From a virus (Duplodnaviria; Heunggongvirae; Uroviricota; Caudoviricetes): a stretch of 4,967 nt of DNA. How positions within the stretch are numbered: position 1 is the first letter of the stretch; each line of letters begins with the position of its first letter. Shown here one piece after another: positions 3,579 to 4,967 of this stretch. The notes below the pieces were generated by a model. The model saw only the letters and a program-made list of their open reading frames with translations. It had not been told where the DNA came from and did not search any database. The position numbers were made by a program, and so were the translations under genes. The DNA lies in IMG/VR virus record IMGVR_UViG_2740892229_000007, one strand, 5' to 3'.

Positions 3579-4967
3579 TCTCCCGCATATTGCCAGCATG
3601 GCTTTTAATGAGCCGCTGATGCTTGAACCCGCCTATGCGCGGGTTTTCTTTTGTGCGCTTGCAGGCCAGCTTGGGATCAGCCGCCTGACGGATGCGGTGT
3701 CCGGCGACAGCCTGACTGCCCAGGAGGCACCCGCGACGCTGGCATTATCCGGTGATGATGACGGACCACGACAGGCCCGCAGTTATCAGGTCATGAACGG
3801 CATCNNNNNNNNNNAGTATCCGGCGACAGCCTGACTGCCGGAGAGGCACCCGCGGCGCTGGCGTTATCCGGTGATGATGACGGACCACGACAGGCCCGNN
3901 NNNNNNNNATCCGGCGACAGCCTGACTGCCGGAGAGGCACCCGCGGCGCTGGCGTTATCCGTTGATGATGACGGACCACGACAGGCCCGCAGTTATCAGG
4001 TCATGAACGGCATCGCCGTGCTNNNNNNNNNNGAGTTATCAGGTCATGAACGGCATCGCCGTGCTGCCGGTGTCCGGTACGCTGGTCAGCCGGACGCGGG
4101 CGCTGCAGCCGTATTCGGGAATGACCGGTTACAACGGCATTATCGCCCGTCTGCAACAGGCTGCCAGCGATCCGATGGTGGACGGCATTCTGCTCGATAT
4201 GGACACACCGGGCGGGATGGTGGCGGGAGCATTTGACTGTGCTGACATCATCGCCCGTGTGCGAGACATAAAACCGGTATGGGCGCTGGCCAACGACATG
4301 AACTGCAGTGCAGGTCAGCTGCTTNNNNNNNNNNGATGACCGGTTACAACGGCATTATCGCCCGTCTGCAACAGGCTGCCAGCGACCCGATGGTGGACGG
4401 CATTCTGCTCGATATGGATACGCCAGGCGGGATGGTGGCAGGGGCATTTGACTGCGCTGACATCATCGCCCGTGTGCGTGACATAAAGCCGGTATGGGCG
4501 CTGGCCAACGACATGAACTGCAGTGCAGGTCAGCTGCTTGCCAGTGCCGCCTCCCGACGTCTGGTCACGCAGACCGCACGGACAGGCTCCATCGGCGTCA
4601 TGATGGCTCACAGTAATTACGGCGCTGCGCTGGAGAAANNNNNNNNNNTGACATGAACTGCAGCGCAGGTCAGCTGCTTGCCAGTGCCTCCTCCCGGCGT
4701 CTGGTCACGCAGACCGCCCGGACAGGCTCCATCGGCGTCATGATGGCTCACAGTAATTACGGTGCTGCGCTGGAGAAACAGGGCGTGGAAATCACGCTGA
4801 TTTACAGCGGTAGCCATAAGGTGGATGGCAACCCCTACAGCCATCTACCGGATGATGTCCGGGAAACATTGCAGTCCCGGATGGATGCAACCCGCCGGAT
4901 GTTTGCACAGAAGGTGTCGGCATATACCGGCCTGTCCGTGCAGGCTGTGCTGGATACCGAGGCTGCA
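3559..4967 (+). CDS. C: Prohead protease / minor capsid protein C (lambda gpC-like, S49 SppA-type peptidase family); 3' end outside the window; interrupted by 5 N runs and redundant blocks
   Basis: GTG start at 3559, 6 nt downstream of GAGGAGG (3546-3552), overlapping the gpB 3' end by 20 nt. In-frame pieces: 3559-3804, 3816-3898, 3910-4022, 4034-4324, 4336-4638, 4650-4967. Translation (M)[53 protein letters not shown]...SYQVMNGIAVLPVSGTLVSRTRALQPYSGMTGYNGIIARLQQAASDPMVDGILLDMDTPGGMVAGAFDCADIIARVRDIKPVWALANDMNCSAGQLLASA...GSIGVMMAHSNYGAALEKQGVEITLIYSGSHKVDGNPYSHLPDDVRETLQSRMDATRRMFAQKVSAYTGLSVQAVLDTEAA. Confidence 0.9.
3805..3814. other. Gap: run of 10 N (block junction 12/13)
   Basis: 10 consecutive n; sequence after the gap re-reads 3696-3779. 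Confidence 0.99.
3815..3898 (+). repeat. 84-bp block that re-reads 3696-3779 (gpC region); second allele
   Basis: gtg->gta synonymous; cag->gga (Q->G), acg->gcg (T->A), gca->gcg synonymous. Confidence 0.9.
3899..3908. other. Gap: run of 10 N (block junction 13/14)
   Basis: 10 consecutive n; sequence after the gap re-reads 3699-3804. Confidence 0.99.
3909..4014 (+). repeat. Redundant re-read of 3699-3804 (gpC region); third allele
   Basis: As block 3815-3898 plus ggt->gtt (G->V) at 3961-3963. Confidence 0.9.
4023..4032. other. Gap: run of 10 N (block junction 14/15)
   Basis: 10 consecutive n; sequence after the gap re-reads 3990-4022. Confidence 0.99.
4033..4065 (+). repeat. Redundant re-read of 3990-4022 (gpC region)
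   Basis: 33-bp overlap, identical apart from the first base. Confidence 0.85.
4325..4334. other. Gap: run of 10 N (block junction 15/16)
   Basis: 10 consecutive n; sequence after the gap re-reads 4120-4324. Confidence 0.99.
4335..4539 (+). repeat. Redundant re-read of 4120-4324 (gpC region)
   Basis: All differences found by eye are synonymous (gat->gac, gac->gat, aca->acg, ccg->cca, gcg->gca, gga->ggg, tgt->tgc, cga->cgt, aaa->aag). Confidence 0.9.
4639..4648. other. Gap: run of 10 N (block junction 16/17)
   Basis: 10 consecutive n; sequence after the gap re-reads 4509-4638. Confidence 0.99.
4649..4778 (+). repeat. Redundant re-read of 4509-4638 (gpC region)
   Basis: agt->agc, cga->cgg, gca->gcc, ggc->ggt synonymous; gcc->tcc (A->S) at 4689-4691. 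Confidence 0.9.
4881..4967 (+). CDS. nu3: Nested in-frame start of a capsid scaffolding protein (lambda Nu3-like) inside the gpC reading frame; 3' partial
   Basis: In-frame ATG at 4881 (SRMDATRRMFAQKV...) at the position where lambda nu3 initiates inside gene C (about codon 239 of C). Call rests on known lambda gene organisation; no strong Shine-Dalgarno is visible upstream. Confidence 0.5.
   Translation, partial: MDATRRMFAQKVSAYTGLSVQAVLDTEAA

Follow-up and report, generated by a model that had tools for sequence, protein, structure and literature searches.

The three consecutive versions of the N-terminal region of gpC that follow one another in this phage DNA are very probably alternative alleles of a single gpC locus (codons about 46-85), stacked end to end by a k=61 assembly that failed to resolve them, and not tandem copies. 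The polymorphism is natural and known, an assembly artefact has put it on display, and nothing in it is new in kind. Lambda-type gene C is among the best-known phage genes; its product in lambda is an S49-family head maturation protease, the C-terminal third of which is also made separately as the scaffold Nu3.

The window, which is the whole stretch of 4,967 nt that was analysed, consists of 17 blocks of ACGT sequence and 16 gaps of exactly 10 N each. All 17 blocks map without gaps and in order to positions 2086-5218 of the lambda genome (NC_001416) with 92-100% nucleotide identity, an interval that spans the 3' end of A, then W and the portal gene B, and 60% of C from its 5' end. At all 16 joins the following block begins upstream of the end of the previous one in lambda coordinates, and adjacent blocks overlap there by 25-205 nt with 1-10 mismatches per overlap. 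Open reading frame calls across the region run through the N stretches and carry no information for that reason. A second triple stack of the same type is formed by blocks 6, 7 and 8 (1921-2239) in the portal gene. The features that bear on gpC are the following.

Whole window, 1-4967, plus strand: 17 overlapping lambda-type pieces from A, W, B and C, belonging to at least three haplotypes.
Block 12, 3359-3804, plus strand: lambda 4219-4663 at 99.1% identity, the 3' end of B and gpC codons 1-82; allele 1 (Q55, P58, T60, G65), lambda-like haplotype group A.
Spacer, 3805-3814, no strand: 10 N, an assembly or scaffolding join with no real sequence.
Block 13, 3815-3898, plus strand: 84 nt, lambda 4556-4638, from base 3 of gpC codon 46 to base 2 of codon 74; allele 2 (G55, P58, A60, G65), haplotype group B.
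Spacer, 3899-3908, no strand: 10 N, like all gaps in the window.
Block 14, 3909-4022, plus strand: 114 nt, lambda 4559-4671, from base 3 of gpC codon 47 to base 2 of codon 85; allele 3 (G55, P58, A60, V65, the last as GTT at 3961-3963), haplotype group C.
Spacer, 4023-4032, no strand: 10 N, again like all gaps in the window.
Block 15, 4033-4324, plus strand: from base 3 of gpC codon 74 to codon 171, starting at lambda 4639 and entering the SppA-like core.

The gene in question starts with a GTG at 3559 in block 12, which overlaps the portal gene B by lying 17 nt before its end, and the order A-W-B-C, with gpC directly after B, is colinear with that of lambda. Lambda gpC has 439 residues, and the Pfam domain Peptidase_S49 covers residues 150-297 (152 bits); the same domain is recognised in block 16 with 57 bits and in block 17 with 102 bits (Pfam gathering cut-off, 24.9). 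Block 12, which encodes gpC 1-82, is without a Pfam match because it lies upstream of this domain, and block 15 matches the NfeD1b_N family weakly. The motif NCSAGQ is encoded in blocks 15, 16 and 17; its S166, the predicted nucleophile serine, is invariant in alignments of 23 and 37 homologues and aligns to the Ser motif of SppA. The match to the protease domain of SppA (3RST; E = 4e-22) extends over residues 81-298, and no alignment is obtained before residue 81. An AlphaFold2 model of gpC, made from a 37-sequence alignment of close homologues, had a mean pLDDT of 37.6 and a pTM of 0.29 and was too poor for use. In the literature gpC is described as the lambda head protease and as part of an ill-defined initiator complex with the portal gpB and the scaffold Nu3 (PMC3224144), and the same article lists a C-B interaction, citing Medina et al. 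(2010).

Over gpC residues of about 47-75, block 12 encodes ...TAQEAPATLALSGDDD, block 13 ...TAGEAPAALALSGDDD and block 14 ...TAGEAPAALALSVDDD; the translations in the gpC frame are ...VSGDSLTAQEAPATLALSGDDDGPRQA... for block 12, VSGDSLTAGEAPAALALSGDDDGPRQA for block 13 and SGDSLTAGEAPAALALSVDDDGPRQARSYQ... for block 14. The substitutions between the versions are Q55G, T60A and G65V in lambda numbering, and all three blocks have P58 in place of the L58 of lambda. Codon 55 is CAG in block 12 (3721-3723) and GGA in blocks 13 (3840-3842) and 14 (3931-3933); codon 60 is ACG in block 12 (3736-3738) and GCG in blocks 13 (3855-3857) and 14 (3946-3948); codon 65 is GGT in blocks 12 (3751-3753) and 13 (3870-3872) and GTT in block 14 (3961-3963). 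Blocks 12 and 13 differ at 7 of 84 nucleotides and blocks 13 and 14 at 1 of 81, and the likeness of the three is one of clear homology and no chance match. The original prediction had given three peptides with Q/G, T/A and G/V differences for positions 3696-4014, and translation in the gpC frame confirms them; the span that it assigned to block 12 (3696-3779) encodes the right peptide but is only a part of that block, which extends from 3359 to 3804.

The way in which the blocks begin and end bears on how they arose. None of the 3787 61-mers in the window is duplicated, and the longest common substring is exactly 60 nt in eight pairs of blocks. The first base of nearly every block mismatches the preceding block, and many blocks stop exactly 60 nt past the final mismatch. 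Block 12 last differs from blocks 13 and 14 at lambda 4603 and stops 60 nt further on, at 4663; the G/T site of G65V is at lambda 4611, and block 14 stops at 4671, again 60 nt beyond. The first base of block 13 is the variant base relative to block 12, and block 10 is exactly 61 nt long. Such block ends and shared runs are what a de Bruijn graph with k=61 yields for nodes specific to one allele. A few block ends break the 60-nt rule and so point to further graph pieces missing from the window.

The relation between blocks 13, 14 and 15 points in the same direction. The last base of block 13 is lambda 4638 and the first of block 15 is 4639, so that the two directly adjoin, and their fusion (376 nt) occurs exactly in 14 natural IMG/VR contigs, 11 of which also contain block 7 exactly. 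Blocks 13 and 15 thus abut on a natural haplotype, and block 14 is an alternative allele set between them. When blocks were assigned by their nearest natural locus, at least three haplotype groups emerged: group A, with lambda-like nearest relatives, contains blocks 1, 2, 6 and 12; group B, with relatives of the L215/L230 type, contains blocks 3, 5, 7, 8, 13 and 15; and group C, with relatives of the L118/L119 type, contains blocks 4, 9, 14 and 17. The junction formed by the end of block 13, the 10 N and the start of block 14 had no match in the viral, genome and metagenome contig collections, and the natural loci retrieved as matches to block 14 contain no 10-N runs. Most long blocks, including block 12, had no exact natural match in the sample and lay 1-4 mismatches from their best match; for block 12 as a whole (446 nt) the best matches are 1 mismatch off. 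Some blocks may be graph chimeras or rare haplotypes; for block 12 either a rare haplotype or a graph path with slight chimerism is possible, and its 84-nt allele segment is natural. As to the chimeric contig ends that the original prediction had raised as a source of the variants, the blocks are indeed short contig ends, but blocks 13 and 14 are exact natural sequences and hence not chimeric.

By the mechanism that we propose, three or more closely related lambda-type head-gene modules (92-99% identical) would have been present in the source sample, either as several lambdoid prophages of a single E. coli-like genome or as the contribution of different strains or phages to a mixed sample. At k=61, a de Bruijn-graph assembly of short reads would have failed to separate these modules and would have left short allele-specific pieces, which would then have been chained in reference order with placeholders of 10 N. 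Both the assembler and the sample type (isolate or mixed) are what we infer. Velvet or SPAdes may put in an artificial gap of at least 10 N; a full-text literature search turned up nothing on this point, and no conclusion here depends on it. It is unlikely that the window was instead produced without any assembly of reads, as a linear string with N spacers that represents many genomes in k-mer-compacted or pangenome style. Such a representation would also give zero duplicate 61-mers and maximal overlaps of exactly 60 nt, and it would suit the missing graph pieces implied by the block ends; however, nothing sets it apart from an ordinary scaffolded assembly, and the biology would be the same either way, namely alleles of one locus and no tandem copies.

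The positions at which the three alleles differ belong to a segment of gpC that is variable in nature. When homologues from Escherichia, Citrobacter, Hafnia, Enterobacter and Leclercia (74-98% identity) are aligned, there is almost no variation at residues 1-45, residues 46-75 vary and have an indel following the DDD motif, conservation is high in the core from about residue 76 to 298, and a second variable linker at about 300-350 lies upstream of the conserved Nu3 part. Among 80 IMG/VR gpC proteins, codons 42-65 hold 6 of the 12 amino acid sites that are polymorphic with a minor-allele frequency above 5%. The ratio piN/piS, calculated as Nei-Gojobori diversity over 65 distinct genes, is 0.11 for the conserved N-terminal segment (codons 1-45), 0.03 for the SppA-like core (codons 76-298), 0.29 for the second linker (codons 299-350) and 0.06 for the Nu3 part (codons 351-439). 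For the variable patch (codons 52-66) it is 0.94, a value consistent with neutrality that comes from a short region with no phylogeny or recombination control. The earlier claim that the protein differences gather within a short segment with conserved sequence on either side holds in the homologue alignment as well as in piN/piS, and the alignment to gpC homologues proposed with it places the positions in a naturally variable segment.

The simplest reading of these comparisons is that residues 46-75 form a loosely constrained, near-neutral linker of acidic character, rich in Ala, Gly, Ser and Asp, which would be physically flexible and in which substitutions would have little functional effect. 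The SppA-like core, beginning at about residues 76-81, is on the same diversity values under strong purifying selection. The differences would then cluster at residues 46-75 because of the loose constraint on the linker that joins the N-terminal segment and the S49 core, and with the variant patch in a near-neutral linker outside the protease core, the biology would be ordinary. The original prediction mentioned neither this linker setting nor the assembly origin of the arrangement, which extends over all of the window. For lambda-type gpC in general, nearly all amino acid polymorphism is found in the two linkers (residues 46-75 and about 300-350). Such a pattern suits a protein built of modules, with the protease tethered to a conserved N-terminal segment that may serve in docking; the assignment of docking to the invariant residues 1-45 is speculation.

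Diversifying selection on residues 52-66, for example by escape from host defence or through an assembly partner, would make the alleles functionally distinct, and we regard it as improbable. It would agree with the concentration of 6 of the 12 common polymorphic sites within 5% of the protein, with a piN/piS of 0.94 that is about 30 times the core value, with a codon 55 that differs at all three bases (CAG vs GGA) and with variation at the same positions between genera. However, piN/piS is about 1 and not above 1, as relaxed constraint gives, the alleles are few, discrete and common to hundreds of genomes, the segment has indels and a low-complexity Ala/Gly/Ser/Asp composition across genera, and the second linker (residues 300-350) behaves similarly. 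We know of no experimental link for diversifying selection on these residues, and the sequence comparisons favour relaxed constraint as the explanation of gpC 52-66. No less improbable is the proposal that selection keeps the 15 residues 52-66 polymorphic because they determine specificity or escape, and that co-resident prophages tend to differ in allele for this reason; if it were true, recognition by bacterial defence and matching to portal or scaffold partners would be examples of what the residues determine.

All three alleles exist outside the window. The 84-mer of allele 1 (3696-3779) occurs exactly in 84 complete E. coli records and 8 IMG/VR contigs, that of allele 2 (block 13) in 941 complete E. 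coli records and 92 IMG/VR contigs, and that of allele 3 (3909-3992) in 783 complete E. coli records, so that alleles 2 and 3 are each commoner in E. coli genomes than the combination in block 12. The full 114-mer of block 14 is found exactly in 36 IMG/VR contigs and 29 metagenome contigs, with no exact match in GTDB representative genomes. All three peptides are present among the 80 IMG/VR gpC proteins, and public E. coli genomes annotate these alleles as S49 family peptidase. Complete genomes contain up to 5 copies of this head module with 95-99% identity: in the finished genome of strain 118UI one prophage has allele 2 and another has allele 3, and strains 2013C-4991 and ETEC1738 carry allele 1 and 3-4 copies of the region. 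The three variants are thus genuine natural alleles of the N-terminal region of a lambda-type gpC, as the original prediction had it, each of them exact in many finished genomes. Sequencing errors or low-coverage graph tips, above all in the G-to-T change of block 14 that gives G65V, are a very remote explanation: at 84 and 114 nt, blocks 13 and 14 are very short, and a single base separates them, as is often the case with error tips, but their exact occurrence in hundreds of natural records, in IMG/VR and metagenome contigs and, as peptides, among the IMG/VR gpC proteins excludes read error.

A real partial triplication, in tandem, of the 5' region of gpC within one phage or prophage genome, with the N runs as small unsequenced gaps, is barely conceivable: the copies do lie head to tail on the same strand at spacings of 119 and 91 nt, and singleton gpC entries with in-frame internal duplications exist in public databases, but the restart upstream recurs at every one of the 16 joins, in A, W, B and C alike, no join is continuous sequence, each being exactly 10 N with no novel junction, the copies tile lambda coordinates with block ends that obey the k=61 rule, blocks 13 and 15 abut around block 14 on a natural haplotype, and there is no such repeat among about 250 natural loci. 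A join of 10 N combined with a restart upstream should caution that haplotypes from an unresolved graph have been stacked, and such stacks are not to be taken as tandem repeats or as an allelic series within one genome.

A short, clustered patch of amino acid differences in a gene of the phage structural module is also what the variable regions of diversity-generating retroelements look like. A retroelement target was rejected, since the differences include C/G, G/T and both directions at A/G and are not adenine-specific, and since no reverse transcriptase or template repeat was found, the flanks of four complete-genome loci consisting of head and tail genes only. Unlike such systems, the window and its lambda-type flanks hold only A, W, B, C, D and E, and the gpC alleles are a few fixed types in hundreds of genomes.

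The closest known counterpart is lambda gpC itself (NP_040584, gene C), which the blocks resemble in their A-W-B-C order, in their nucleotide identity of 92-100% and in the GTG start that overlaps B. Residues 1-45 are nearly identical in lambda and block 12, with S42 in lambda and R42 in block 12. Lambda differs from all alleles in L58 vs P58, from alleles 2 and 3 also at G55 and A60, and from allele 3 at V65, all of which are ordinary alleles of prophages. The protease domain of gpC resembles SppA (PDB 3RST and 4KWB from Bacillus subtilis; 3BEZ, E. coli protease IV), but SppA has no counterpart to gpC 1-45 or to the polymorphic residues 47-75, and the variants are unmappable on a solved structure. 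As for the arrangement of the blocks, the nearest parallel is offered by assemblies of E. coli with several lambdoid prophages, such as Shiga-toxin-producing strains, in which the prophage copies are collapsed or fragmented; the finished 118UI genome shows two of the three alleles, the most shown for any one finished genome, and for the present sequence a mixed sample is equally possible.

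The N-terminal 45 residues of gpC, the lambda-type S49 head protease, are nearly invariant from Escherichia to Leclercia in an alignment of gpC homologues (A1) in which overall identity falls to 74%. The piN/piS ratio of this segment is 0.11, and its conservation is at least that of the protease core. Synonymous diversity is also close to nil in codons 21-40. No counterpart of residues 1-45 was found in Pfam or in SppA. The segment could serve in docking to the portal or scaffold, or a constraint could act there at the nucleotide level. The gpC features concerned are:

Window 3559-3693: conserved gpC N-terminal segment, codons 1-45 (alignment A1)
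Window 3721-3723 versus 3840-3842 and 3931-3933: gpC codon 55, compared between alleles

Codon 55 is CAG (Gln) in allele 1 and GGA (Gly) in alleles 2 and 3, a difference at all three bases; the surrounding strings are GCCCAGGAGGCA and GCCGGAGAGGCA. Instead of three substitutions, two compensating 2-nt indels can account for these strings.

A second stack of three alternative versions of one stretch lies in the portal gene B, and represents the same assembly phenomenon as the gpC blocks 12-14. The blocks concerned here and below are:

Window 1921-2239: triple stack of blocks 6, 7, and 8 in portal gene B (repeat family D4, 95% and 81% identity)
Window 2173-2560: block 8, ending at lambda 3909
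Window 3039-3099: block 10, starting at lambda 3910

Because 3909 and 3910 are consecutive lambda positions, blocks 8 and 10 are expected to abut, as blocks 13 and 15 do. However, the junction formed by the final 100 nt of block 8 and block 10 was absent from all of the approximately 250 natural loci; it represents a rare haplotype or else a path through the assembly graph with no counterpart in nature.

In-frame internal direct duplications of gpC occur in five E. coli database proteins (P0001 and P0003-P0006), singleton entries named S49 family peptidase, with lengths of 743, 489, 484, 468, and 475 aa compared to the usual 439. Mis-assembly of multi-copy lambdoid head genes is the probable source of these entries, the assemblies most likely having been closed without N spacers and later annotated as proteins.

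In the prophage of E. coli 118UI that carries allele 3, an IS4 transposase gene lies between the major capsid gene E and FI, and the head module is probably disabled:

L248 (118UI locus) 6686-8032, equivalent to NZ_CP032515.1 1355175-1356521: IS4 transposase insertion

The record MW057783.1 (Campylobacter phage CJLB-4), with Campylobacter jejuni entered as host, is 99.1% identical to lambda across the B/C region and has the length of lambda (48,361 bp). The sequence appears to be lambda itself, or a lambda contaminant, deposited under a different name.
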